From positions 140,364-204,363 of the forward strand of contig CAWBLF010000003.1 in NCBI GenBank assembly GCA_963789635.1: DNA of 64,000 nt. The letters are read 5' to 3'. The position numbers and the translations under genes were made by a program. This document shows positions 2,601-39,479 of the stretch, one piece after another. Within the stretch, counting starts at the first letter, position 1; every line of letters begins with the position of its first letter. The notes beneath the pieces are model-generated. The model was not told the origin of the DNA. It saw nothing but the letters and a program-made list of their open reading frames with translations, and ran no database searches. The DNA is from an uncultured bacterium. Its GTDB lineage: Bacteria > Patescibacteriota > Minisyncoccia > Phycocordibacterales > Zambryskibacteraceae.

Positions 2601-2672
2601 CCTCGGCATGGTTGTTATCGAGGCTTAGCCTTGAGAATTGAAACTAAGGCTAAGCCCTCGGTAACCATATGT
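2583..2672. repeat. CGAGG/CCTCG-core modular palindromic repeat cluster (copy region R1)
   Basis: gaggcatagcctcgg ... cgaggcttagccttgagaattgaaactaaggctaagccctcgg. The middle part is the reverse complement of the module ccttagtttcaa(a)ttctcaaggctaagcctcg seen at 26729 and 31639. Overlaps the rpe stop codon. Confidence 0.8.
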
Positions 2673-4635: not shown

Positions 4636-4712
4636 GTCAGACCTTGACTTCCCGAGGCATTAGCCTTAAGAGGACTTACCAAGGCTAAGCCTCAAGGCCG
4701 AACCTTTCAATC
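4636..4712. repeat. CGAGG/CCTCG-core modular repeat cluster (R2)
   Basis: aaggtcagacctt ... cccgaggcattagccttaag aggacttaccaaggctaagcctcaagg. Shares the aggctaagcct and gaggcattagcctta modules with the other regions. Confidence 0.7.
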
Positions 4713-9077: not shown

Positions 9078-9755
9078 ATGTTGTCACTACAAATAAACAA
9101 ACGCGATAAGTTGGAAGACTTGTCAGCAATGCGAAAAAACGGGGTAATGCCGGCTGTTTTTTACGGCAAAAAGGAACCTTCAACACCTATTTCCATTGCA
9201 AATAAGGATTTCTTAAAGGTCTGGAAAGAAGCGGGAGAGTCCTCGGTGGTTTCTTTGGCATACGACGGCGGTTCGGTGGATGCGCTCATTCACGCAGTTG
9301 ATTTTGATGCGGTTACAGGAGTGCCGATTCACGCCGATTTTTATGTCTTTGAGAAAGGCCGCAAACTTGAAGTTTCCGTTCCTTTGGAATTTACAGGTAT
9401 TTCTCCGGCCATAAAAGATCTCGGCGGTCTTTTGGTCAAAGTTATGCATGAAGTGAAGATTGAGGCATTGCCAGCGGATCTTCCTCACAGTGTTTCGGTG
9501 GACATCTCATCTCTCATAGAAATTGGTAGTCAAATTCTGGCTAAGGATATCAAACTTGGATCAGGGGTTAGTTTAATGGAAAATCTTGAAGAGGTAGTAG
9601 CACTTGTTTCTGCTCCAAAAGAAGAAGAGCCTGAAGAAGTAGCCCCTGTAGACTTGTCTGCTATTGAGGTAGAAAAGAAGGGTAAGGAAGCCAAGGAAGG
9701 TGAGGCGGAAGAAGCGCCAGCTGGCGAAGCAAAGGCGGAAGAAGTGGCGAAATAA
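9078..9755 (+). CDS. rplY: 50S ribosomal protein L25 / general stress protein Ctc, with an acidic/lysine-rich C-terminal tail
   Basis: The patterns G.MPAV.YG and H.VDFD..TG.PIHADF are typical of L25/Ctc. The start may be 9069 instead. Confidence 0.85.
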   Translation: MLSLQINKRDKLEDLSAMRKNGVMPAVFYGKKEPSTPISIANKDFLKVWKEAGESSVVSLAYDGGSVDALIHAVDFDAVTGVPIHADFYVFEKGRKLEVSVPLEFTGISPAIKDLGGLLVKVMHEVKIEALPADLPHSVSVDISSLIEIGSQILAKDIKLGSGVSLMENLEEVVALVSAPKEEEPEEVAPVDLSAIEVEKKGKEAKEGEAEEAPAGEAKAEEVAK

Positions 9756-9810
9756 AAGCGGCATTTAATAACGCTTGTTCTATAAATATTTCTTAATAAT
9801 TTTGTTAGTT

Positions 9811-9848
9811 TGCACAAAAAAGACGGACTATTCCGTCTTTTTTGTGCA
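9811..9848. terminator. 17-bp perfect-stem hairpin downstream of rplY
   Basis: tgcacaaaaaagacgga / ctat / tccgtcttttttgtgca. A- and T-runs are built into the stem, so it could terminate in both directions. Confidence 0.6.
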
Positions 9849-9906
9849 CGCATAATTATTGTCACTTTATATTTTGGTCAAAATGAGTTAAAATTGATAC
9901 TGACTC

Positions 9907-14624: not shown

Positions 14625-14700
14625 GCCGCCTTAGCTCAGTTGGTAGAGCAACACTTTTGTAAAGTGAAGGTCCTCGGTTCGAGTCCGAGAGGTGGCTCCA
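14625..14700 (+). tRNA. tRNA-Thr (anticodon UGU), CCA encoded
   Basis: Hand-folded cloverleaf. Acceptor stem GCCGCCT/AGGTGGC with one G-U pair. D arm GCTC-AGTTGGTA-GAGC. Anticodon loop ttTGTaa, anticodon at 14658-14660. T arm CTCGG-TTCGAGT-CCGAG. Discriminator T followed by CCA. Confidence 0.9.
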
Positions 14701-14735: not shown

Positions 14736-14864
14736 TGCCATCTCAGCAAGACAGTCAATACTGTCTTGCGTTCGGACTCGAAAGTCGGAGACATATTTCT
14801 TCAGCAGAAGAAATAGTTGAGACGGGGTCGCGAAATTTTGCTGTGATGACAAGCAAAATATTCG

Positions 14865-14888
14865 TGGCCGAATCCGAGAGGTAGCTCA
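14865..14888 (+). repeat. degenerate direct copy of the tRNA-Thr 3' end (possible att-type footprint)
   Basis: cgaatccgagaggtagctca compared with tRNA cgagtccgagaggtggctcca: a 10-nt exact core plus flanks, 17 of 19 matching. Confidence 0.45.
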
Positions 14889-14912
14889 ATAAAGCAAACT
14901 GCTTTAATTGGA

Positions 14913-17717: not shown

Positions 17718-18494
17718 ATGAAAGAGCACATGCAAAATGAAAATAGTGATATTGGACCAAAAGTAGATTTGAGAACTGTTTATGATGAAGACGCGAAAAT
17801 TGCGGAAATAGAAAAACGTGAAAATTTTCTTCGCACGGTTGGTTTTTCTGATGAGGAGATTATGAGGTTAAAGGATAATAGGCCGACATTATATGATATT
17901 GTCAATGTTCAAAATACTTTGGATTCGTTGAAACAAATCGGTTTTACCAATCCCGAAAAGATGATCACCAGTTTACCAGCTATTTTGGGCTACAACATCG
18001 AGAACATCAAACAAAAAATCGATGACCTCAAGGTTCTCGGTTTTACCAATCCCGAAAAGATGATCACCAGTTTATCAGCTATTTTGGGCTACAACATCGA
18101 GAACATCGAAAGGAAAATAAGCGCTTTGGAAACAATTTTTAAACTTTACAGTATAAGAGTTGATGTCAAAGAATTTATTGAAAAAGATTTGTTAATATTG
18201 GGTGCAAAAATTGATAAGGTATGGATTATAGCAAGGGCGTTACGTAATCTTGGTATGAATCCAAGTGATATAAACAATGTGTTTCTTTCACGATTACGAT
18301 CATCCAATATAACAGATACCACGGCGGCTCTTACGACCTTGTTGGCGGAGATGAAAAAGGACGTTATTCCAGCGGAAATATTCAAAGCTATTCGTGTTGC
18401 CAAAAAATTGCCTAAAGATGAAAAACAACAGATTATTGAGTCACAGAAAAGTTCTAAGTTGGCAAGACGATACAAACGAGGATATGGCAGTTAG
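17718..18494 (+). CDS. mTERF-like helical repeat protein (hypothetical)
   Basis: Repeats of the form LGFTNPEKMITSLPAILGYNIENIKQKIDDL resemble the mTERF motif (GFs..ei..ii...P.iLg.s.e.nl..ki..L). This is a motif-level call only. Confidence 0.5.
   Translation: MKEHMQNENSDIGPKVDLRTVYDEDAKIAEIEKRENFLRTVGFSDEEIMRLKDNRPTLYDIVNVQNTLDSLKQIGFTNPEKMITSLPAILGYNIENIKQKIDDLKVLGFTNPEKMITSLSAILGYNIENIERKISALETIFKLYSIRVDVKEFIEKDLLILGAKIDKVWIIARALRNLGMNPSDINNVFLSRLRSSNITDTTAALTTLLAEMKKDVIPAEIFKAIRVAKKLPKDEKQQIIESQKSSKLARRYKRGYGS
17949..18118 (+). repeat. 99-bp-period tandem duplication inside the mTERF-like gene
   Basis: 71 nt at 17949-18019 recur at 18048-18118 with one mismatch (tttaccagc versus tttatcagc). 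Confidence 0.9.
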
Positions 18495-23202: not shown

Positions 23203-23213
23203 TTAAAACAAAA

Positions 23214-23241
23214 ATCTGCCGAACTAATAAGCTCGGCAGAT
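23214..23241 (-). terminator. rho-independent terminator oriented for a minus-strand transcript (may also stop gyrB)
   Basis: atctgccgaac/gctcggcagat stem. The T-run (tttttgtttt) follows the stem only on the minus strand. Confidence 0.6.
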
Positions 23242-23249
23242 GTGGTTCA

Positions 23250-23497
23250 ACCGTCAATCCCGACCCACTTAAGGTCGCGGAAAAGATCCGGTTTCAGGTC
23301 GAAGAACGTTTTTCCTTGGGTGGCTTTTATGCAACAACTTTCACACTCGTCCAATCTTGAGGAGTGCAAGGGTAAGGAGATGTTACCCCTCAATGAGAAT
23401 TGTTTCCAAAGAGAAAATCTTTTTCTTTTTTCTTGGCCCTACAATGAACATGTCGTTTTACCTGAGGCGATAAAACAGTTCATGGTTGGGATGACCT
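23250..23497 (-). ncRNA. candidate structured non-coding RNA of unknown class
   Basis: About 250 nt with no credible ORF. Ends pair: 23484-23495 with 23253-23265. Internal hairpins at 23444-23483 and 23368-23390. Followed by a terminator oriented for the minus strand. Confidence 0.3.
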
Positions 23498-23560
23498 TTC
23501 AGTAAAAATTTTTCAAATATTAGTATTCTCAAATAAAAATTAAAAAAATATAAATTAAAA

Positions 23561-23604
23561 ATGTATTACTTCCACTACAGTATACTGTAGTGGAAGTAAT
23601 ACAT
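23561..23604. promoter_or_regulatory. 44-bp perfect palindrome (atgtattacttccactacagta|tactgtagtggaagtaatacat); candidate operator and/or terminator
   Basis: Perfect dyad verified base by base. Shares the 20-bp core cactacagtatactgtagtg with 24049-24090. Lies 32 nt downstream of the HTH gene stop. Confidence 0.6.
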
Positions 23605-23636: not shown

Positions 23637-24032
23637 TTAGAAAATTTTTAGATTTTTGTGAGGTCTTCTAACTCGCGGAGGAAGTATTCCATACAGCAAT
23701 CTTTCAATTTCGTCAGCCAACTTGCCTTTTTTGGAGATTATTGAAATGGTTTCTTTGTATTTTCCAGCATCCATTGCAAGTGAGAATTTTGCGATAGTGG
23801 TTGGGCTAAGATGAATAATTTCAGAGATATTTTCGAAGGATATGTTCTTTTCCAGCATATAAATCATTGTGATTCTCTTTGCAAACATGATTTTTTCTGT
23901 TTTCGTGAATAACTCTTTCATTACCGAAAGGGAACGTGAACGGTCATCTGCCTCTTGAAATGTCTTGGCAAATTGAGTCATTATTTTGTTGAAAACTTGC
24001 TGGTCTATTTTCTTTTGAGATATATGTGGCAT
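23637..24032 (-). CDS. TrpR-like (YerC/YecD family) helix-turn-helix protein
   Basis: 131 aa. The pattern L.T..E..M.AKR......L.......I......S..TI is typical of Trp-repressor-related YerC/YecD proteins. Confidence 0.6.
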   Translation of the reverse strand: MPHISQKKIDQQVFNKIMTQFAKTFQEADDRSRSLSVMKELFTKTEKIMFAKRITMIYMLEKNISFENISEIIHLSPTTIAKFSLAMDAGKYKETISIISKKGKLADEIERLLYGILPPRVRRPHKNLKIF

Positions 24033-24048: not shown

Positions 24049-24090
24049 ACTATATATTACACTACAGTATACTGTAGTGTAATATATAGT
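24049..24090. promoter_or_regulatory. 42-bp perfect palindrome (actatatattacactacagta|tactgtagtgtaatatatagt); candidate operator of the HTH gene
   Basis: Perfect dyad verified base by base. Lies 16 nt upstream of the HTH start codon. Same 20-bp core as 23561-23604. Confidence 0.6.
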
Positions 24091-24129: not shown

Positions 24130-24765
24130 TTAAAACTCTTTGGTTTCGCCATCGGCAATGGTGACGAAATTGATGCCGACTTTGTCCAAAATCATGGCTA
24201 CCATTCCGGCAAATCGGACAGGGTCTTTGTACATAGCGTCGTGGACGCCAAAGGCAATTTTAGGATTGATAGTTCTGGCGTATTCTATTGCATCGGAAAT
24301 TTTCATCCAAGGTCCTGCGACTGGAAGAGCCAGAATATCTACCGGAATTCCTGGGTCGTAGAAAGCATCACCTGGGTAAAATAGTTTTTCACCTATCATA
24401 TAGCCTGTATTTTCCACGGGAGGAATGGTTATGTAAATTTCCGCGTGAGTGTCTCCGTAGCCTTGTATCAGTATTCCACCGACATCCGTTTCATCTTTGT
24501 GAGCCACAATTTCAAATGGAATGCTCTCCTTTGCCAAGAGTGTGGATACAGCAGTATTTGTGATAACACGGGCAGACGGATTGTTCGCCAGTACTTTTTT
24601 TAAGGAATCTATATGAAAATGGTCGGCATGCTCGTGAGTAATAAGCACCGCCGAAATGCCAGTGACCTCGTTTTGCCCCGTAGTAAAGTTTCCCGGGTCT
24701 GTGAGCAGTTTCACTCCTTTGTCTTCAATGACCAGACAACAATGTCCAATTTTAGTTATGCGCAT
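24130..24765 (-). CDS. MBL-fold metallo-hydrolase
   Basis: 211 aa with the HEHADH motif (LITHEHADHF) and downstream H/D ligands. Its ATG overlaps the thrS stop (TAATG). Confidence 0.8.
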   Translation of the reverse strand: MRITKIGHCCLVIEDKGVKLLTDPGNFTTGQNEVTGISAVLITHEHADHFHIDSLKKVLANNPSARVITNTAVSTLLAKESIPFEIVAHKDETDVGGILIQGYGDTHAEIYITIPPVENTGYMIGEKLFYPGDAFYDPGIPVDILALPVAGPWMKISDAIEYARTINPKIAFGVHDAMYKDPVRFAGMVAMILDKVGINFVTIADGETKEF

Positions 24766-26507
24766 TATTTTTTATTATTTATTTCTTCTTTAAGTTTCTT
24801 TAGAAAATCATCCAAGCTCATGGTTTCCTGTTTGCCGGTGTCACGTGACTCCACGGTGACGGTCTTTGCTTCTACTTCTTTGTCGCCAATGACAATCCAG
24901 TAAGGTATTTTGTTGTTTTTGGCATCGCGAACCTTGCCACCAAGATTTTCATCGGCGTCGTCAAAGACGGCGCGAATACCGCTTTCTCTAAGTGTTTCAA
25001 AAACTTTTTTACCATACTCATTGTGATTCATTCGAACAGGAATAATTTTCACATGCACTGGGGCAAGCCAAAGAGGGAAGGCTCCGGCATAGTGTTCAAT
25101 CAAGATACCAAGGAATCTCTCCGGGGAACCGACGATGGCGCGGTGAATCATCACTGGAGTCTTCTCCGATCCATCGGAGTCGGTATATTTGAGCCCAAAT
25201 CTTTCAGGCATAATAAAATCTAGTTGAATGGTAGAGATCTGCCATTCACGGCCGAGTGAATCTTTGGAAATCAAGTCCATTTTTGGTCCATAGATGGCAG
25301 CTTCACCTTCCGCTCTTATGTAATCGATTTTGTTTTCGACAAGAAGATCTTCAAGAATTTTTTGTGATTTTTCCCAAACCTTTGGTTCTCCAAGATATTT
25401 GTCCGGTTTTTTCGGGTCCCAAAGAGACAGTCTGATTGAATATTTCATGCCGTAAGTTTCCATAGCTTTTTTCACAATACCCAAGACGGCAAGGAACTCA
25501 TCTTTGATTTGGTCTTCTCTGCAGAAGCAATGTCCGTCATCTTGGGCAAAAGCACGTAGGCGGGTGAGACCGTTCAATTCTCCCGGTTTTTCATCTCTAT
25601 ACAGATTGGCAAAGTCGGCAATCCTCACCGGTAAATCTCTGTAGCTTCTTGGCTTTGAAGCATATACCTGGGTGTGGTGCGGACAGTTCATCGGCTTCAA
25701 GTAGTACTCTTCTTTTGTGTAATTGGAAACGACACGGAACATATCTTCCTTGTATTTATCATAATGACCTGAAACCTTGAATAGCTCCGCTTTATTGATG
25801 TTTGGAGTATGAACTTCTTCATAACCAATAGCCGTCTGCAGTTCATTTGAGTATTTTATAATCTCGCGTCTTACAGTAGTGCCTTTTGGGGTATAAATGG
25901 GAAGACCTGGGCCAACGAGCTCGGAAAAAATAAATAAGTCTAGTTCCTTCCCGAGTTTTCTGTGGTCTCTCTTCTTAGCTTCCTCTTGCTGTTTTTCGTA
26001 TTCAACCAATTCTTCCTTAGTGTTGAAAGCCAGACCATAAATACGAGTGAGCATTTTGTTATTCTCGTCACCACGCCAGTATGCCCCGGCTAGTCGCGTC
26101 AATTTGAAGGCGTCCATGGAAACATCTTTCATGTTTTCCACATGTCCGCCACGGCAGAGGTCTGTAAATTTGCCGGAAGTATAAAAAGTTATCGGTTCTC
26201 CTTTTGATAAAATTTCATCAATTAGTTCAAGCTTGTACGGATTGTGTTTAAAAAATTTCTTTGCTTCTTCTGGTGAAACATCTTTTTTTTCAAAGCTTGT
26301 CCAAGTGTTGGAAAGTTTTTTCATTTTCTTTTCTATGTCTTTGAGCGCGTTGTCCGGCAGGGGAGAAGAGAATTCAAAATCATAATAAAAGCCGTTATCA
26401 ATGGCTGGGCCGATAGAATTTAGAGTATCAGGGTAAAGATCTAGCACGGCAGCCGCCAAAAGGTGGGCTAGGGAGTGACGTAGATGTTCTAGTTTTATGT
26501 CAGACAT
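24765..26507 (-). CDS. thrS: threonine--tRNA ligase (no N-terminal TGS domain)
   Basis: LRHS.AHLLA start of the second additional domain, class II core motifs (FRDE..G...GL.R...F.QDD.H, HRA..GS.ERF), and a C-terminal anticodon-binding domain. Confidence 0.95.
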   Translation of the reverse strand: MSDIKLEHLRHSLAHLLAAAVLDLYPDTLNSIGPAIDNGFYYDFEFSSPLPDNALKDIEKKMKKLSNTWTSFEKKDVSPEEAKKFFKHNPYKLELIDEILSKGEPITFYTSGKFTDLCRGGHVENMKDVSMDAFKLTRLAGAYWRGDENNKMLTRIYGLAFNTKEELVEYEKQQEEAKKRDHRKLGKELDLFIFSELVGPGLPIYTPKGTTVRREIIKYSNELQTAIGYEEVHTPNINKAELFKVSGHYDKYKEDMFRVVSNYTKEEYYLKPMNCPHHTQVYASKPRSYRDLPVRIADFANLYRDEKPGELNGLTRLRAFAQDDGHCFCREDQIKDEFLAVLGIVKKAMETYGMKYSIRLSLWDPKKPDKYLGEPKVWEKSQKILEDLLVENKIDYIRAEGEAAIYGPKMDLISKDSLGREWQISTIQLDFIMPERFGLKYTDSDGSEKTPVMIHRAIVGSPERFLGILIEHYAGAFPLWLAPVHVKIIPVRMNHNEYGKKVFETLRESGIRAVFDDADENLGGKVRDAKNNKIPYWIVIGDKEVEAKTVTVESRDTGKQETMSLDDFLKKLKEEINNKK

Positions 26508-26559
26508 GGCCTAAATATAACAGAAAATAGATTTTTTGAAAAAGAAAAATAGTTTCATA

Positions 26560-26990
26560 AAGGCTAAGTCTCGAATGTGATTATGATTGTAAATTCCCGA
26601 GGAATCGCCCTAAAATAGGTCACCGAGGACTTAGCAAAAGTATTTTTCTGGTGAAAAATCTTTTTCCCATACCTCGTCCCGCCTTTGCGGGACTCCGGTC
26701 TTGCGAAGCTCCAAGTATTCGCTTCTCACCTTAGTTTCAAATTCTCAAGGCTAAGCCTCGATGCCTTAGGTCACTGACGATAAATTCCCGAGGAATCGCC
26801 TAAATACAGGCCCTCTAATTGTGTATCCGAATAGGTCACCGAGGACTTAGCCTTAGTTTCAAATTCTCAAGGCTAAGCCTCGATGCCTTAGGTCACTGAC
26901 GATAAATTCCCGAGGAATCGCCCTAAAATAGGTCACCGAGGACTTTAAGCCTCGATGCCTAAAGGCAAGGCGAAACCTCGAGAATTTACA
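26560..26990. repeat. largest array of the CGAGG/CCTCG-core modular repeats (R4), including one 151-bp element and a 72-bp unit repeated at 122-bp period
   Basis: Modules taggtcaccgaggactta, aaattcccgaggaatcgcc, ccttagtttcaaattctcaaggctaagcctcgatgcctta and ggcgaaacctcgagaattt, in several copies. 26729-26800 equals 26851-26922. Confidence 0.9.
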
Positions 26991-29900
26991 AGGCTTTGGC
27001 CTTTTCGGCGATGAGACTGATGTCACCGTTTCTTTTGGAAATTTTGGCAAAAATACCAATGCATTTTTCCTTTTGAAAAAGATCTTTAAATTCGACCAAT
27101 GTGCGCGGGAAGACGACCAACTCTATTGATCCTGTCATATCAGTAAAACGAGTAAACAGCATACGTTCGTTGTTTTTGGTAACGACATCTCGCACTTCTT
27201 CCACAAACCCTGCTATGGCCACGCTGGCTCCCTCACGAGGACTTGCCAGCACCTCTGCAATTGTCACTCCCTTGCCTTTAATTTTTTCTTGATATTTGTC
27301 CAATGGATGGCCGGAGATATAAAGGCCAAGCAGTTCTTTTTCCCAGGCCAGTTTGTCTTCGTTGGTGGCCGGTGGCGTAGGGCGGAGAGAAATGTCAGGA
27401 GCAGATTTTTCTCCCGCAATACCAAACAAAGAATCTTGATTTTTCGGACCCTGCATTCTTTCTTTGTGATATTCCAAAAGGAATTCCAAGTTGCCAAGAA
27501 GCGAACCGCGTTCGCCCAGGTCATCCATGGCGCCACATTTGATAAGCGCTTCAAAAGATTTTTTATTTAAATTGCGATCCTTGATGCGGTCCAAAAAATC
27601 TGCAAGTGAAGAAAATTGTCCATTCTTTTTGCGTTCTTTGACAATATAATCCGCTATGCCTTCACCAAAATTCTTGATGGTAGTTAATCCAAAACGGATT
27701 TTGTCTTCTTCGCCTTCCTTGCGGACCACCGAAAATCCCTGATAACTTTCGTTTACAGACGGAGGAAGAACAGGAATCTTCATACGCTTGCATTCGTTTA
27801 TGAATTCACCAATTTTTTCAATGTTTCCGGAATCAGCCGTCAGAACTGCGGACATATAAATAGCGGGATGATGTGCTTTGAGATAAGCGGTCTGATAGGC
27901 CACGAGGCCATACGAAGCCGCGTGAGCCTTGTTGAAACCGTATCCTTGAAATGGCTCAAAAAGTTTCCACATTTCTTCCGCTTTTGCTTTTGAAAGACCG
28001 CCATGTTTTATGCATCCATCTACGAAAATAATGTGTTGTTTGGCCATTTCTTTCGGAATCTTTTTACCAACGGCTTTGCGAAATTTATCCACTTCACCCC
28101 AAGTGTATCCGGCGACATTGATAGCGGTCATAAGCAAATCATCCTGGTAAACTAGCACTCCATAAGTGGGGGCCAAGAAATCTTTCATTTTTGGGTGTTT
28201 GTAAATTATCGGCTTTAATCCGTGCTTGCGGGCAATATATTCATTTATATTGTCCATTGGTCCCGGACGGTAAAGCGCTACCATGACATTGATGTCGTCA
28301 ATGGTTGTGGGTTTTAGGTCTGTCAGATAACGCGTCATCCCGTCGCCGTTTAATTGGAACAAACCTTCTGTTTCTCCGCGCGACAAAAGTTCAAAAGTTT
28401 TTTTGTCATCAAGAGGAATTTTTGTGATATCCAATACGGCGTTTTCGATTGCTTCAATGCGCTCGATCGTATCTGCGATGATGGAAAGATTTTTGATTCC
28501 CAAAAAGTCAAATTTCAACAAGCCCGCTTCTTCAATGGAATGCATATCATATTGGGTGATGATTTTTCCTTCTTCTTTTGAATCAAGCTGAAGCGGTGTG
28601 TAGTTCGTAAGCGCCGTTGGAGCGATGACGACGCCGGCGGCATGGACAGAGATGTGTCGGGCGCATCCTTCAATTTTTTTAGCTAAATTTATTATTTCCT
28701 TTGTGTCGGTTTCGGTGTCGTAAGCCGCTTTGAGTTCTGGCACCAGTTCAAAGGCATGATCTATGGTCATGGGGAATCCTTGTGAACCCATTGGAATAAG
28801 TTTGGCGATTCTGTCTCCTATGGTGTAAGAGTAGCCGAGAGCGCGGGTAACATCGCGTACGGCCCCACGCGCCATCATTGTGCCGAAAGTTCCCACTTGC
28901 GCCACTTTGTCTACTCCATATTTTTGTCTGGCATATTCTATTACCTCGTCGCGACGGTCGTCGGCCAGGTCAAGGTCAATATCGGGAGGGGACGGGCGTT
29001 CGGGATTGAGGAATCTCTCAAAAGGAAGATTGTATGTAATTGGGTTCACCGTAGTGATACCGGTCAGAAAGCTGATCATAGAGCCGGCCGCTGAACCTCT
29101 GGTGTTTGTGAGGATTTTGTTTTCATGAGCAAAGCGAATAAGGTCTGCGACAACAAGAAAATATGGTTCATAACCCTTGGCGCCTATAATTTCCAGTTCA
29201 TAATCTATTCGTTTTTGAATTTCTACGGAATTTTCTATGCCGTGAGTTATCAGTCCTTCCATTGCCAATCGCCGTAGCTCTGCCGCGGATGTTAATCCCG
29301 ACTCTACCGTGAATGAAGGAAAAACCCATTTTCCAAGATTCAGCTTAAGATCACATCGGTCAATAATTTTCTGAACGTTTGCGAGAGCTTCCGGTAAATC
29401 GGCAAAAAGTTCGTTGGCTCTTTGTTGGTTGATAAATGAAAAATCTTCATTTTGTTCGGTATCGGCGCGTTCGCGAATGCCCCCATTCTGAATGGAGAGA
29501 AGTGTTTCCCTTGCGGTTTTATCTTCCGGGTCCAGGTAGTACACATCGTGGGCCGCCACAATGGGAACATTTTGTTTGTCGGCAAAAGCGACAAGTGCTT
29601 TCATTCGTCCCTCATGGCCTTCTATTTCATGGTGGTGTGTAACTTCAATAAAAAAATCGTCACCAAATATCCTTTTGTACCATTTTGTTATCTCTATGGC
29701 TTTGTCAGGTTCACTGCCTCGTAAAATACTGGCAATTTCTCCTGAAAAAGAAGGTGAAATGCATATGAGCCCTTCGGAATATCTTTCCAAAATTTCTTTG
29801 TCGATTCTGGGTTTGTAATAAAAACCTTCAAGATGAGCCTTTGTGACAAGAGCAATTAAATTTTTGTAACCGGTTTCATTTTTCGCCAATAGAATCAGTC

Positions 29901-30171
29901 TGTGTCTGACGTTGTCTATTGCAGCTTGTTTATCCGTTCGACTTCGCAATGCGACATAGGCGTCTACACCGAGTATCGGCTTAATTTCTGCATCCAGACA
30001 TTGTTTGTAGAATTCTATGGCGCCATACATATTGCCATTGTCTGTCAAAGCTATGGCCTTCATATTTTCTTTCTTTGCTCGAGAAACAAGTTCTGGGATT
30101 TTTGGCAAAGCATTTAGCAGGCTGTAATGACTATGAACATGCAGATGAGAAAAAGGCTTCATGGCAGGCAT
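26986..30171 (-). CDS. dnaE: DNA polymerase III alpha subunit
   Basis: 1061 aa. N-terminal PHP domain (HLHVHSHYSLL), a polymerase core and a C-terminal OB fold. Confidence 0.95.
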   Translation of the reverse strand: MPAMKPFSHLHVHSHYSLLNALPKIPELVSRAKKENMKAIALTDNGNMYGAIEFYKQCLDAEIKPILGVDAYVALRSRTDKQAAIDNVRHRLILLAKNETGYKNLIALVTKAHLEGFYYKPRIDKEILERYSEGLICISPSFSGEIASILRGSEPDKAIEITKWYKRIFGDDFFIEVTHHHEIEGHEGRMKALVAFADKQNVPIVAAHDVYYLDPEDKTARETLLSIQNGGIRERADTEQNEDFSFINQQRANELFADLPEALANVQKIIDRCDLKLNLGKWVFPSFTVESGLTSAAELRRLAMEGLITHGIENSVEIQKRIDYELEIIGAKGYEPYFLVVADLIRFAHENKILTNTRGSAAGSMISFLTGITTVNPITYNLPFERFLNPERPSPPDIDLDLADDRRDEVIEYARQKYGVDKVAQVGTFGTMMARGAVRDVTRALGYSYTIGDRIAKLIPMGSQGFPMTIDHAFELVPELKAAYDTETDTKEIINLAKKIEGCARHISVHAAGVVIAPTALTNYTPLQLDSKEEGKIITQYDMHSIEEAGLLKFDFLGIKNLSIIADTIERIEAIENAVLDITKIPLDDKKTFELLSRGETEGLFQLNGDGMTRYLTDLKPTTIDDINVMVALYRPGPMDNINEYIARKHGLKPIIYKHPKMKDFLAPTYGVLVYQDDLLMTAINVAGYTWGEVDKFRKAVGKKIPKEMAKQHIIFVDGCIKHGGLSKAKAEEMWKLFEPFQGYGFNKAHAASYGLVAYQTAYLKAHHPAIYMSAVLTADSGNIEKIGEFINECKRMKIPVLPPSVNESYQGFSVVRKEGEEDKIRFGLTTIKNFGEGIADYIVKERKKNGQFSSLADFLDRIKDRNLNKKSFEALIKCGAMDDLGERGSLLGNLEFLLEYHKERMQGPKNQDSLFGIAGEKSAPDISLRPTPPATNEDKLAWEKELLGLYISGHPLDKYQEKIKGKGVTIAEVLASPREGASVAIAGFVEEVRDVVTKNNERMLFTRFTDMTGSIELVVFPRTLVEFKDLFQKEKCIGIFAKISKRNGDISLIAEKAKAL

Positions 30172-31458: not shown

Positions 31459-31478
31459 GTTTAATCTTTTAACTTTTT

Positions 31479-31752
31479 TGGTCACCGATTTAATTCCCGA
31501 GCAATCGCCTTAATACAGACAATTTTAGGTCACCGAGGACTTAGCAAAAGTATTTTTCTGGTGAAAAATCTTTTTCCCATACCTCGTCCCGCCTTTGCGG
31601 GACTCCGGTCTTGCGAAGCTCCAAGTATTCGCTTCTCACCTTAGTTTCAAATTCTCAAGGCTAAGCCTCGATGCCTAAAATACAGGCCCTCAAGGCTAAG
31701 CCTCGATATCTAAATGCAAGGCGAAACCTCGAGAATTTAAGGCTGAGCCTAG
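31479..31752. repeat. CGAGG/CCTCG-core modular repeat cluster (R5) containing the second 151-bp element
   Basis: 31526-31676 is identical to 26616-26766. Flanked by aattcccgagcaatcgcc, tacaggccctcaaggctaagcctcgat and ggcgaaacctcgagaatttaaggc modules. Confidence 0.9.
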
Positions 31753-31802
31753 AATACATTGTAACTTGTGTTTTCTGGCTCATCAGGTATACTCAATTCA
31801 CT

Positions 31803-32049: not shown

Positions 32050-32964
32050 ATGGCAAACCGGCACCTTGCAAGATCAGTGGTAATGCAGACACTCTTCGAA
32101 TGGGACTTCGCAAAACGATCCCGTGAAGAGGCATTTGGCATACTCAAACGAAACAAAGATGAGTTTGCTCCAGGGGTTACCGAAACATCCTTTATGGACG
32201 GTCTTTTGGAATCCGTTTTGGACAAGCAAAAGGACATTGACAGCATCATTACCAAAGCGGCACCCGATTGGCCAATTGAAAAAATATCAGTGATTGATCG
32301 CAATATTTTGCGATTGGGTCTTTCGGAATTGCTCTTCTCCGACGCAGAACAAGTGCCACCAAAAGTGGCTATCAACGAAGCCATTGAGCTAGCAAAATCA
32401 TTCGGTGGAGAAACATCGGGTAAATTTGTAAACGGAGTCCTCGGCGCAGTCTACAAAGAAATGGGGGAACCCGGCAAAGACGAAGTTTCCACCAAGAAAA
32501 AAACAATCAAGAATATTCCAGATGACAAGCTGACCATCGAAGACCTAGGTGGGGCTCTGGTTTATTCTATTTATGAAGGTGTCATATATTTGGCTTTGGT
32601 TCATGATGTCTTCGGTCACTGGACTCTTTCAAAAGGAAAGCTGGAAAATGGCGAGTCGGTGAAAGACGGGACAACACGAGAGATAAAAGAAGAGATTGGT
32701 ATTGATATAAATATTGAAGAAGATTTGGGGACAAACGAATACATTGCATTTCATCCGGAGAAAGGTAAGCTGAAAAAAAGAGTTCATTACTTTCTTGCAA
32801 AAGCGGACTTTCAGCCACTGACACTTGAAGCTCACGAGTCTCGTGGCGGATTGACTGACGCGCAATGGTTCCCGGTAGAAAAAATCGGCGAACTCAATTT
32901 TTATGACGATATCATGCCGTTGGTGACCAAAGGCATTGAAATGATGGGAAAGAAGGAAGTTTAA
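32050..32964 (+). CDS. nusB: NusB antitermination factor fused to a C-terminal NUDIX hydrolase domain
   Basis: The first ~145 aa carry NusB motifs (R..A.Q.LF..DF, DRNILRLG..EL, INEAIELAK.FG). The C-terminal part carries a Nudix box, GKLENGESVKDGTTREIKEEIGI. Confidence 0.8.
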   Translation: MANRHLARSVVMQTLFEWDFAKRSREEAFGILKRNKDEFAPGVTETSFMDGLLESVLDKQKDIDSIITKAAPDWPIEKISVIDRNILRLGLSELLFSDAEQVPPKVAINEAIELAKSFGGETSGKFVNGVLGAVYKEMGEPGKDEVSTKKKTIKNIPDDKLTIEDLGGALVYSIYEGVIYLALVHDVFGHWTLSKGKLENGESVKDGTTREIKEEIGIDINIEEDLGTNEYIAFHPEKGKLKKRVHYFLAKADFQPLTLEAHESRGGLTDAQWFPVEKIGELNFYDDIMPLVTKGIEMMGKKEV

Positions 32965-32993
32965 AAGTTTTGAAGTTTGTAAGTTTTTAAGTT
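32964..32993. repeat. left arm of an imperfect 30-nt inverted repeat bracketing the second four-helix-bundle gene
   Basis: aaagttttgaagtttgtaagtttttaagtt pairs with 33346-33375 at 26 Watson-Crick pairs plus 1 G-U out of 30. Begins at the last base of the nusB stop codon. Confidence 0.8.
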
Positions 32994-33368
32994 ATGGCCA
33001 CAAGACTAGAGAATCTAAAAATATATCAGATGGCGCGTGAGCTGGAACTTCGGGTTTTTGAATTAACGAAAAGTTTTCCAACCGCAGAAAATTTTAGAAG
33101 CATAGATCAATTGCGCCGTTCGTCTTCATCTGTTACCAATAACATTGCTGAATCTTATAACAAGAAGTCAATAAAGGATAAAATAAGAATTATTAATGAT
33201 ATTGTTAAGGGTGAAGCAAACGAAACAAGGTCTAATCTTGAAATGTTTCAAGAAAAGAAGTTTTTCAAAGACCAAAATCTGATTGATAGATACACAGAAC
33301 TCATAAAAGCAGTCAGCGGATATATAGCATTTCTCAAAACTTCTCAACTTAACAACTTATCAACTTAA
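32994..33368 (+). CDS. four-helix-bundle protein (23S rRNA intervening-sequence protein / S23p / Avd-like family)
   Basis: 124 aa with L.IYQ.A.EL...V..LT..FP and DQLRRSSSSV.NNIAE motifs. Confidence 0.85.
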   Translation: MATRLENLKIYQMARELELRVFELTKSFPTAENFRSIDQLRRSSSSVTNNIAESYNKKSIKDKIRIINDIVKGEANETRSNLEMFQEKKFFKDQNLIDRYTELIKAVSGYIAFLKTSQLNNLST

Positions 33369-33375
33369 AAACTTT
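33346..33375. repeat. right arm of the inverted repeat bracketing the second four-helix-bundle gene
   Basis: aacttaacaacttatcaacttaaaaacttt. Overlaps the ORF's 3' end and stops 3 nt before the rnc ATG. Confidence 0.8.
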
Positions 33376-33378
33376 TTT

Positions 33379-34075
33379 ATGGACGGTTTTAATCAATTTG
33401 AAGAACGAATAGGTGTGATTTTCGAAAATAAAAACTTGCTCAAGCAGGCGTTTGTTCATCGTTCATATTTAAATGAAAACAAAGAATTTCCTCTAGGCCA
33501 CAATGAACGTCTGGAGTTCCTCGGAGACGCAGTTCTTGAACTGGTGATTACCGACTATCTTTACACCAAATACCCCGAGAAAAACGAAGGAGATATGACA
33601 TCGCTTCGCTCTGCCTTGGTCAACGCCACCGCTCTTCATAAAGTGGGTGCCAGATATTGGTATCAATGACCTACTTCTGCTCTCCCGAGGTGAATCTAAG
33701 GACCTTGGGCGTGCTCGTCAGTACATTCTTGCCAATACAATGGAGGCATTGATTGGCGCCATTTACCTTGACCGTGGATATGATATGGCCAAGAAATTTA
33801 TTTATGAATTCATAACTCCGCTTTTGGACAAAGTGATTGAAGACGAAAGCTGGATTGACTCCAAGAGTTTATTCCAAGAAAAAGCCCAAGATCATGCAGG
33901 GGTAACTCCCGCATATCAAACCTTGAAAGAAACTGGTCCCGACCACGACAAGCATTTCACAGTCGGCGTGTATTTGAAAAATGAACTCATTGCTCAAGGC
34001 GAAGGGGATTCCAAACAGGAAGCGGAGCAGGCAGCAGCTCACAATGCTCTCAAGGCAAAAGGTTGGAATAATTGA
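33379..34075 (+). CDS. rnc: ribonuclease III, interrupted by an apparent 1-nt insertion (+1 frame change) near 33650-33652
   Basis: Frame 1 gives NERLEFLGDAVLEL ... LRSALVNATALHKVGA. Frame 2 continues DIGINDLLLLSRGE ... MEALIGAIYLD plus a C-terminal dsRBD. Removing one base from gcca restores VGADIGIN. Confidence 0.85.
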
Positions 34076-36440: not shown

Positions 36441-36590
36441 TAGGTCACCGAGGACTTAAATTCCCAAGGAATTGCTTTAATACAGGCCCTCAATTTTAGG
36501 TCACCGAGGACTTAAATTCCCGAGGAATCGCCTTAATACAGGCCCTCAAGGCGAAACCTCGAGAATTTAAGGCTAAGCCTCGATGCCTTA
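36441..36590. repeat. CGAGG/CCTCG-core repeats (R6): one half element (36441-36493) plus one full 95-nt nested hairpin element (36496-36590)
   Basis: ttaggtcaccgaggactta-aattcccgaggaatcgcc-ttaatacaggccctcaa-ggcgaaacctcgagaatt-taaggctaagcctcgatgcctta. Confidence 0.9.
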
Positions 36591-39146: not shown

Positions 39147-39385
39147 TAGGTCACAGAACAACGCAAAATTAAATTTTAGGTCACCATTAAATTCCCGATT
39201 AGGTCACCGAGGACTTAAATTCCCGAGGAATCGCCTTAATACAGGCCCTCAAGGCGAAACCTCGAGAATTTAAAGCTAAGCCTCGATGCCTTAGGTCACT
39301 GACAATAAATTCCCGAGGAATCGCCTTAATACAGACAATTTTAGGTCACCGACTTAGTTTCAAATTCTCAAGGCTAAGTCTCGGA
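39147..39385. repeat. CGAGG/CCTCG-core repeats (R7): several partial modules plus one full 95-nt element (39199-39293)
   Basis: 39199-39293 differs from 36496-36590 at one base. Additional taggtcac starts at 39147, 39177, 39292 and 39342. Confidence 0.9.
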
Positions 39386-39479
39386 TTCAGCTCAATTTTT
39401 GTTTGATATTTTGGCTAAATATATTTATACTAAAGTTGTACAGACAGAATGATTAATAATAGATAACGCGCGACACAAT

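Follow-up and report, generated by a model that had tools for sequence, protein, structure and literature searches.

REP, BIME, MITE and similar small repeat families are familiar from proteobacteria and firmicutes. Some of them vary in internal composition: ERIC and Correia elements exist as length variants that differ by an internal segment, and in the pneumococcal BOX elements (boxA-boxB(n)-boxC), which are transcribed, the outer modules pair around an optional inner module, with boxB, itself a module of the family, present in differing copy number at many loci. REP sequences and BIMEs are short imperfect intergenic palindromes that lie mostly just after genes, alternate in orientation, have variable loops and stems tolerant of G-T/G-U pairs, and are joined by recurrent linkers into mosaic clusters (PMC3733652, PMC3333891, PMC2817692). 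Palindromes of 20-40 bp with an unpaired GTAG or CGTC (TGTC/CCTC) tetranucleotide at one end define the tagged REP superfamilies (Di Nocera et al. 2013), and REPINs (PMC3116915, PMC3337134) combine two inverted units and a spacer into a hairpin of ~60-110 nt with near-identical young copies within a genome. The MITE-like repeats of enterobacteria have TA ends and a TA duplication (PMC2759123). REP hairpins are also targets for IS elements (PMC1525189), and PMC12288879 describes ssr9, a small non-coding module that enters REP sequences with the borrowed transposase of the IS110-family element ISPpu9.

A full-text literature search found no description of such repeats in Patescibacteria/CPR, whose genomes are small and compact. 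Here we analyse a repeat family in a 64-kb stretch of DNA from an uncultured member of the Paceibacteria within this group (hereafter the window), in which an earlier note, made from the sequence alone, had pointed out a filled and an empty version of one repeat junction side by side. The comparisons indicate that the filled version carries a lineage-specific insertion in an otherwise ordinary REP/BIME/MITE-like repeat family, an ordinary kind of feature in an unusual host. The family is conserved at orthologous gene ends in three species and forms nested arrays in one of them, which provides a time series of repeat build-up, and, as a clean and dated gain, the 94-nt insert might be used to mark strains.

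Filled and empty hairpins in the dnaE-thrS spacer

The genes thrS (24765-26507) and dnaE (26986-30171), both on the minus strand and rightly guessed in the earlier note, flank a 478-bp spacer that contains a repeat array. Its basic unit, here called H1, is one imperfect hairpin with left arm TAGGTCACCGAGGACTTAGCC, right arm GGCTAAGCCTCGATGCCTTA and an 18-nt loop (TTAGTTTCAAATTCTCAA); its ends are bounded by TA, and the arms CCGAGGACTTAGCC / GGCTAAGCCTCGG are lengthened in the window species to TAGGTCAC... / ...GATGCCTTA. In the filled copy (26616-26768, plus strand), the left arm M1 plus AG (TAGGTCACCGAGGACTTAG, 26616-26634) is separated by a 94-nt core (26635-26728, plus strand) from the loop S (CCTTAGTTTCAAATTCTC) and right arm B (AAGGCTAAGCCTCGATGCCTTA), which together read ccttagtttcaaattctcaaggctaagcctcgatgcctta (26729-26768). 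In the empty copy (26832-26890, plus strand), M1 plus AG (26832-26850) is fused directly to S plus B (26851-26890), giving gaCTTAGcCTTAGttt. The flanks of the two versions are identical at 58/58 bases. The core lies 5' of the loop, 1-2 bp below the H1 stem top, and is present in one version and absent from the other as a discrete unit. Its boundaries are precise, apart from an ambiguity of 1 nt that stems from a C at the start of the core and another right after its end. Both the filled/empty pair and the 72-bp block with a 122-bp period were described accurately in the earlier note: 26729-26800 recurs exactly at 26851-26922, and the similarity extends to 82 nt at 95%.

The empty copy scores 69.9 bits with a covariance model of the short hairpin and has predicted folding energies of -26.6 (plus strand) and -31.2 kcal/mol (minus strand), with z scores of -5.8 and -6.8. 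For the filled copy the predicted values are -49.8/-58.3 kcal/mol (z -4.1/-5.0), and the main stem still forms.

The rest of the spacer is built from related modules, all on the plus strand. A decayed remnant of an old hairpin, consisting of loop end and right arm (tagtttcat-AAAGGCTAAGTCTCGAATG, 26546-26578), adjoins the thrS promoter and has the GTCTCG variant, as in the sister-species copies. The outermost arm of the array is an A module (TAAATTCCCGAGGAATCGCC, 26590-26609), the left arm of a second hairpin type, H2; its partner A' lies at 26967-26988 and extends over the stop codon of dnaE (26986-26988, minus strand). Between the filled and empty copies, a linker formed by a truncated M1 (TAGGTCACTGACGA) is followed by an A module and the L loop (TAAATACAGGCCCTC); this stretch (26767-26815) belongs to the 72/82-nt block that recurs 122 nt downstream. 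After the empty copy comes another truncated M1 and then A-M1-short B-A' (26889-26988), a filler-less H1 nested in the loop of H2.

The repeat family in the window

All repeat loci are intergenic, and there are six in the window: the spacers of rpe/tktN (2616-2672, minus strand) and, on the plus strand, of tktC/DUF1653 (4650-4697), thrS/dnaE (26546-26988), rnhB/rpmF (31475-31756), smc/rnr (36441-36590) and rpsP/khpA (39150-39392). The repetition is far above chance, with seven exact copies of M1 (0.12 expected), 12 of the A module (0.02 expected) and two of a 40-mer from the core (0 expected).

The second core (31545-31638) sits in a second filled H1 (31526-31678) within the rnhB/rpmF array. 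This copy, like the short ones at 2616-2672, 4650-4697 and 39341-39392, went unmentioned in the earlier note. The two filled copies are identical at 151/151 nt over 31526-31676, and the identity begins and stops exactly at the ends of the H1 hairpin. Exact repeats of this kind raise the question of whether the side-by-side arrangement was created during assembly of a repeat-rich MAG, the core being present at one locus only or the array order being wrong. The 151-nt repeat between the loci and the 72- and 43-nt exact repeats within the array are hard for short reads, and the only independent contig of the same strain, from Logan, ends at the first repeat of the array; the repeat family itself accounts for the breaks at these spots in short-read assemblies of this organism. 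The gene order beside both loci nevertheless matches that of the sister species, every module junction recurs at other loci, and the short and long forms differ by a clean indel with no chimeric join, which makes a misassembly highly improbable.

The remaining loci contain short copies and nested forms. The rpe/tktN copy is a diverged short H1 with the junction CTTAGCCTTAG (71.9 bits with the covariance model), and the tktC/DUF1653 copy is a degenerate one. The smc/rnr array consists of M1-A-L followed by a nested M1-A-L-A'-B (36497-36590), and the rpsP/khpA array of another nested M1-A-L-A'-B (39200-39293), a linker, A-L' and a short H1 (39341-39392) with a 9-nt deletion in its left arm. H2, with arms AAATTCCCGAGGAATCGCC and GGCGAAACCTCGAGAATTT, is TA-bounded, and the two hairpin types nest both ways: H2 lies inside H1 in the two M1-A-L-A'-B elements, and H1 lies inside H2 in A-M1-B-A' at 26903-26988. 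The filler between GGACTT and AAGGCTAAG of H1 is accordingly variable, being absent, the 20-nt S, the core plus S, or a whole H2. B has AAGGCKAARCCTCGA in common with A', and CCGAGGA is found in both M1 and A, so that all modules resemble versions of a single unit placed in two orientations. Several junctions recur (B/M1t/A, M1/A and A'/B three times each, L'/M1 twice). All elements are predicted to fold better as minus-strand RNA (-51.5 vs -37.3 kcal/mol for 36497-36590); the orientation of the hairpins relative to transcription is mixed among the loci, with few independent sites that differ.

Short hairpins at orthologous sites in sister species

Two sister species were found through 90% protein clusters of ThrS, the PfkB kinase and RNase III. 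S1 is represented by loci L018-L021 and L026 (~69-84% nucleotide identity to the window over aligned blocks) and S2 by L022, L023 and L027 (82-86%). Together, these ~64 kb of sister DNA hold eight short copies, several at the same intergenic sites as in the window, and no copy of the core, the orthologous sites included. The covariance model recovers four short copies and the right halves of the two filled copies in the window, three copies in S1 and five in S2, plus reduced forms, and no copies in more distant relatives.

At the dnaE/thrS site, where the window has its array with filled and empty H1, both sister species have the short form, and the S1 spacer is identical in four assemblies. 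At rpsP/khpA, the orthologue of the window's 9-nt-deleted short form, which stands there beside an array, is an intact short hairpin in S1, whose right arm and flank are 98% identical to 39352-39399; S2 has two minimal CCGAGG...CCTCGG hairpins. At smc/rnr, the nested element of the window (36497-36590) is an H1 in which H2 replaces S; its S2 orthologue is a short M1-S-B hairpin with long arms, and S1 has a reversed short form nested in another palindrome. At rnhB/rpmF, the site of an array with a filled H1 in the window, S2 has one short hairpin, whose right arm is orthologous to the last, B-like module of the array (31739-31756, plus strand); S1 has no hairpin and different intervening genes. 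Three further sites were compared between the window and S2. The degenerate short form at tktC/DUF1653 corresponds to a perfect short hairpin in S2, the full short form at rpe/tktN to outer arms only (30 nt less), and a half remnant at fba/pfkB to a short form.

The S1 loci have some peculiarities of their own. The reversed short hairpin at smc/rnr (L026 13094-13175) lies inside the loop of the palindrome AACGAAACCTTTT ... AAAAGGTTTCGTT. Genes rnhB and rpmF are adjacent in S2 and in the window (31459-31802), where the second array sits between them; S1 has four extra genes there (L026 5500-8314), one HTH_20-like and three without a Pfam hit. The S1 dnaE/thrS spacer also contains an unrelated insertion of ~345 nt (L018 9606-9958) with a called ORF of 66 aa (9697-9897) and a separate GC-rich hairpin that resembles a terminator; four independent assemblies agree on this sequence without a difference.

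The short junctions of the sister species read ATTAGCCTTAG or CTTAGCCTTAG, and one S2 copy has CTTAACCTTGA, for which the opposite arm shows a compensating change. Across the alignment, 88% of cells preserve the pairing of the H1 stem, and in S2 one G-C pair has become A-T by compensatory change. The junction TTAGCC/TTAG is common to diverged paralogues and orthologues, and the comparison indicates that this short junction, which forms the stem top and the start of the loop, is ancestral; the core would therefore be a derived gain in the window lineage. This is the polarity proposed in the earlier note, and it holds at the dnaE/thrS site too, where the orthologous spacers of the sisters carry the core-less junction only. 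A core-containing ancestor, which would have overturned that proposal, is the opposite of what the short forms in S1 and S2 point to.

The CTTAG pentamers on both sides of the junction, which the note had remarked on while suggesting a search for target-site duplications, were not made by the insertion: both appear to belong to the ancestral short form and therefore would not be a target-site duplication. Such a reading, whether as CTTAG..CTTAG or as TA plus a GC/CT 'excision footprint', was rejected on finding both pentamers in the sister short forms and in diverged paralogues. The one copy with a single CTTAG, at 39341, arose from the orthologous double form by loss of 9 nt.

The opposite direction of change, in which the long form is the original full-length element, the short copy at 26832 arose by a recent precise internal deletion and the other short copies by older deletion, has some appeal. 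Palindrome centres are prone to deletion, other variants have lost their apex (the 39341 copy minus 9 nt, the S2 rpe/tktN copy minus 30 central nt), and the filled and empty copies are adjacent with identical arms, as after a tandem duplication followed by a deletion. However, the same 94-nt deletion, with 1 nt of microhomology, would have to recreate the junction of diverged paralogues and of both sister species, and slippage between the CTTAG repeats would have kept a single pentamer where two are seen. As no long form is present in the ~64 kb of sister DNA or at any orthologous site, we regard an original long form as very unlikely.

Outside this group the family fades. In more distant relatives, with 84-85% ThrS identity, the dnaE-thrS spacer is 36 bp long, and in others the rpsP/khpA spacer holds an ordinary terminator; no family member occurs in either. 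The R-module pattern gave 0 hits in GTDB representative genomes, and six-frame peptides of the repeats, compared with 5.8 billion proteins for spurious ORFs over other copies, gave nothing. The A-module 19-mer was found in the GTDB representatives as seven singletons from unrelated phyla, about the chance number. Found nowhere else among the sequences searched, the family appears restricted to a genus-level clade.

Fold and affinities of the 94-nt core

The core is predicted to fold as a separate domain of three small hairpins (z -4.1/-4.9). Its left hairpin (AAAAGTATTTTTC/GAAAAATCTTTT) is unrelated to the right one (GCGAA/TTCGC), and the central one reads CCTC-GTCCCGC-CTTT-GCGGGAC, with a 7-bp stem that begins with G-C and T-A. 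No terminal inverted repeats or similar end hairpins were found. The core has no similarity to the other repeat modules, 293 of 300 shuffled sequences scoring equally well, and by this measure it is foreign to the repeat family; an origin by rearrangement of family modules was ruled out for the same lack of similarity.

Several other origins were tried and set aside. With Rfam 15, no family reaches its gathering threshold in 26480-27020, the best match being a chance miRNA (23 bits vs a threshold of 58), and in the whole window tRNA-Thr alone reaches threshold, so a known RNA family or ribozyme was ruled out. Phages, plasmids and viral contigs gave no matches to the core, which argues against an origin from any of these; M1 matched two viral sequences, each time through a 17-mer in GC-rich coding DNA that is put down to chance. 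Readings as DGR, integron attC or CRISPR were set aside as well, since adenine-specific differences, GTTRRRY sites and regular spacers are all lacking. Within the core, the left part (26643-26665) matches the thrS antisense strand (26265-26287) at 21/23 nt and beats 30/30 shuffles in ungapped scoring; once gaps are allowed, other stretches of the sequence score as well as the thrS region, a derivation from thrS antisense was rejected, and the match is probably chance in T-rich sequence. In JGI metagenome contigs, both sister species included, the hairpin pattern of the core is absent except for one partial hit from another organism (L008 7487-7516), where CCTCGTCCCGCcaccgGCGGGACTCCGGTC equals the central hairpin and lies in the last codons of an ORF that reads as ftsE-like. 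The hairpin alone matches there and the rest of the core does not, so this may be chance or a shared small hairpin motif.

Could the core move by itself? It might be a tiny non-autonomous mobile element that homes to the hairpin top without target duplication and is mobilised in trans, the two filled copies being independent insertions. In both copies its insertion is precise, leaves no duplication and falls at one and the same point of H1; it is foreign to the family, structured and derived with respect to the sister species, and precedents exist in IS insertion into REPs (PMC1525189) and in the small non-coding module that moves alone (PMC12288879). If self-mobile, the core would be among the smallest hairpin-targeting elements known. 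Yet the count stops at two, both copies lying in the same 151-nt setting. The window, the sister loci, JGI metagenomes, viral contigs, plasmids and phages gave no core in a different context, and three to four of the window's other short hairpins carry no insert. Further, the core is without the terminal repeats or similar end hairpins of such an element and without an Rfam match, and no PF01797-like RAYT or other transposase was seen in the Pfam scan of the 40 window ORFs or among the precomputed Pfam hits of the sister loci. We therefore consider a self-mobile core unlikely. The earlier note, whose interpretation is supported in part, had called the core an insertion module and spoken of modules that recombine or move. 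Remodelling of the family in this lineage is plain (array growth, replacement of S by A-L-A' at smc/rnr), but both cores occupy the same hairpin within an identical 151-nt stretch, and for this a single insertion with later copying or gene conversion of the entire hairpin suffices, without any movement of the core by itself.

Origin of the filled form

The course of events that we favour, and hold to be probable, starts from the short core-less H1 as the ancestral and conserved state, a member of a genus-specific family of short, imperfectly palindromic intergenic repeats. In the window lineage, one unrelated stretch of 94 nt would have been inserted at the stem top, 5' of the loop, leaving the main stem intact. 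The hairpin with its insert could then have reached two loci by copying of the whole TA-bounded element or, alternatively, by gene conversion between family members through the identical 20-nt and 38-nt arms. Tandem duplication or unequal exchange between modules would have enlarged the local array and would account for its 122-nt period. Presence and absence of the core, its polarity and place in the hairpin, the conservation of the short form at orthologous sites and the growth of arrays in this lineage are seen directly in the alignments; the single insertion event and the route to the second locus are what we infer from them. Against this course, two independent site-specific insertions into identical hairpins would look the same, gene conversion could have homogenised the arms and masked an older origin of the long form, and cores in other contexts may lie beyond the 64-kb window in a genome of at least 269 kb.

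Nesting also invites a broader reading, that the family grows by a mechanism aimed at hairpin tips and that the core is a minimal selfish module homing to the hairpin top by some enzyme, in a streamlined CPR genome whose 40 scanned window ORFs include no mobile-element gene. It is prompted by H1 in H2, H2 in H1, the S1 case of H1 within an unrelated palindrome that resembles a terminator, and the place of the core near the stem top, and we think it quite unlikely.

From their position, the hairpins may act as RNA or DNA structures at 3' ends, terminator- or REP-like. The S2 dnaE/thrS hairpin is followed by a T-run on the sense strand, and the rpsP/khpA hairpin of the window and S1 lies ~10 nt upstream of the T-run found after the terminator of more distant relatives.

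Comparison with described repeat systems

By sequence and layout, the family would rank among lineage-restricted small palindromic intergenic repeats that resemble REP/BIME clusters or TA-ended MITEs, and it falls in no named family. With REP/BIME it shares the short imperfect palindromes, mostly just after genes, the variable loops and the G-T/G-U-tolerant stems; six loci in 64 kb show intergenic palindromic units in alternating orientation with recurrent linkers that make mosaic clusters. Unlike REP/BIME, it has arms of 13-20 nt, an 18-nt conserved loop, hairpins that nest in either order, a CPR host and no RAYT among the window ORFs. It also has no GTAG/CGTC tag, as no GTAG/CTAC is found at the ends of M1, B, A or A' (compare Di Nocera et al. 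2013). A reading of the core's central hairpin as a CGTC-tagged REP was likewise rejected, its 7-bp stem starting from G-C, T-A rather than having the described 8-9 bp starting with A-T.

Paired inverted units with a spacer in a hairpin of ~60-110 nt, and near-identical young copies within the genome, recall REPINs, a system defined by a RAYT (Y1 HUH transposase) gene that the same repeats flank, whereas many copies here are positionally conserved between species and have not recently moved. ERIC/RU-1, YPAL/RU-2 and Correia elements are similar as imperfect palindromes of 100-170 nt with stable stem-loops and TA at both ends; their sequences are unrelated, and here TA is part of the conserved ends, with no clean empty site found. 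H1 and H2 are TA-bounded and have imperfect inverted arms, and no filled/empty pair with unique flank shows a duplication of the kind that MITE insertion leaves. BOX elements also pair constant outer modules around an optional inner module in intergenic hairpins, but the core is a single foreign segment in one context only.

The position of the core recalls REP-targeting IS elements (IS1397/ISKpn1, the IS110-family ISPpu9/ISPpu10) and the stand-alone ssr9 module, in which foreign DNA also lies at a fixed hairpin position with no obvious duplication. The core differs from these in being 94 nt long, in having two copies, and in showing no recognisable ends, transposase or bridge/guide RNA features. 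The palindrome-associated elements derived from IS200/IS605 (PATEs) have hairpins near both ends that resemble each other, and they insert without duplication 3' of a fixed tetra- or pentanucleotide. Insertion of the core 3' of (C)TTAG without duplication is compatible with this, but its unrelated left and right hairpins set it apart from them, and no TnpA was seen.

Other features of the window

The window contains two genes of the 23S_rRNA_IVP / Avd-like family (PF05635), at 865-1236 and 32994-33368, each bracketed by inverted repeats (846-1266 and 32963-33376). The brackets are 19 nt at 100% identity (846-864 / 1248-1266) for the first and 31 nt at 87%, with AAGTTT-type tandem units, for the second. 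At the orthologous gap/rpiB and nusB/rnc junctions S2 has neither gene, and S1 has the second, a distribution suggestive of small mobile cassettes. RNase III is split in the window into the overlapping ORFs 33379-33669 and 33647-34075 (33379-34075) and is intact, with 231 aa, in both sister species; the split is a frameshift, a pseudogene or an assembly error.

Just 3' of tRNA-Thr (14625-14700), a structured-looking non-coding stretch (14740-14895), called by neither ARAGORN nor Rfam, has ggccgaatccgagaggtagctca at its end, a sequence similar to the T-arm and acceptor end of this tRNA. A 99-nt tandem repeat (17938-18118; 1.8 copies, 93% identical) lies inside an mTERF-like ORF (17718-18494), which sits between ORFs with PheS-type (tRNA-synt_2d) and PheT-type (B3_4/B5) domains. 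About 350 nt at 23203-23560 are without a convincing gene, holding an 87-aa ORF with no Pfam hit and giving no Rfam match. Two perfect palindromes (23561-23604 and 24049-24090) that share cactacagtatactgtagtg flank a minus-strand ORF (23637-24032) with a weak Trp-repressor-like match, and they look like putative operator sites.
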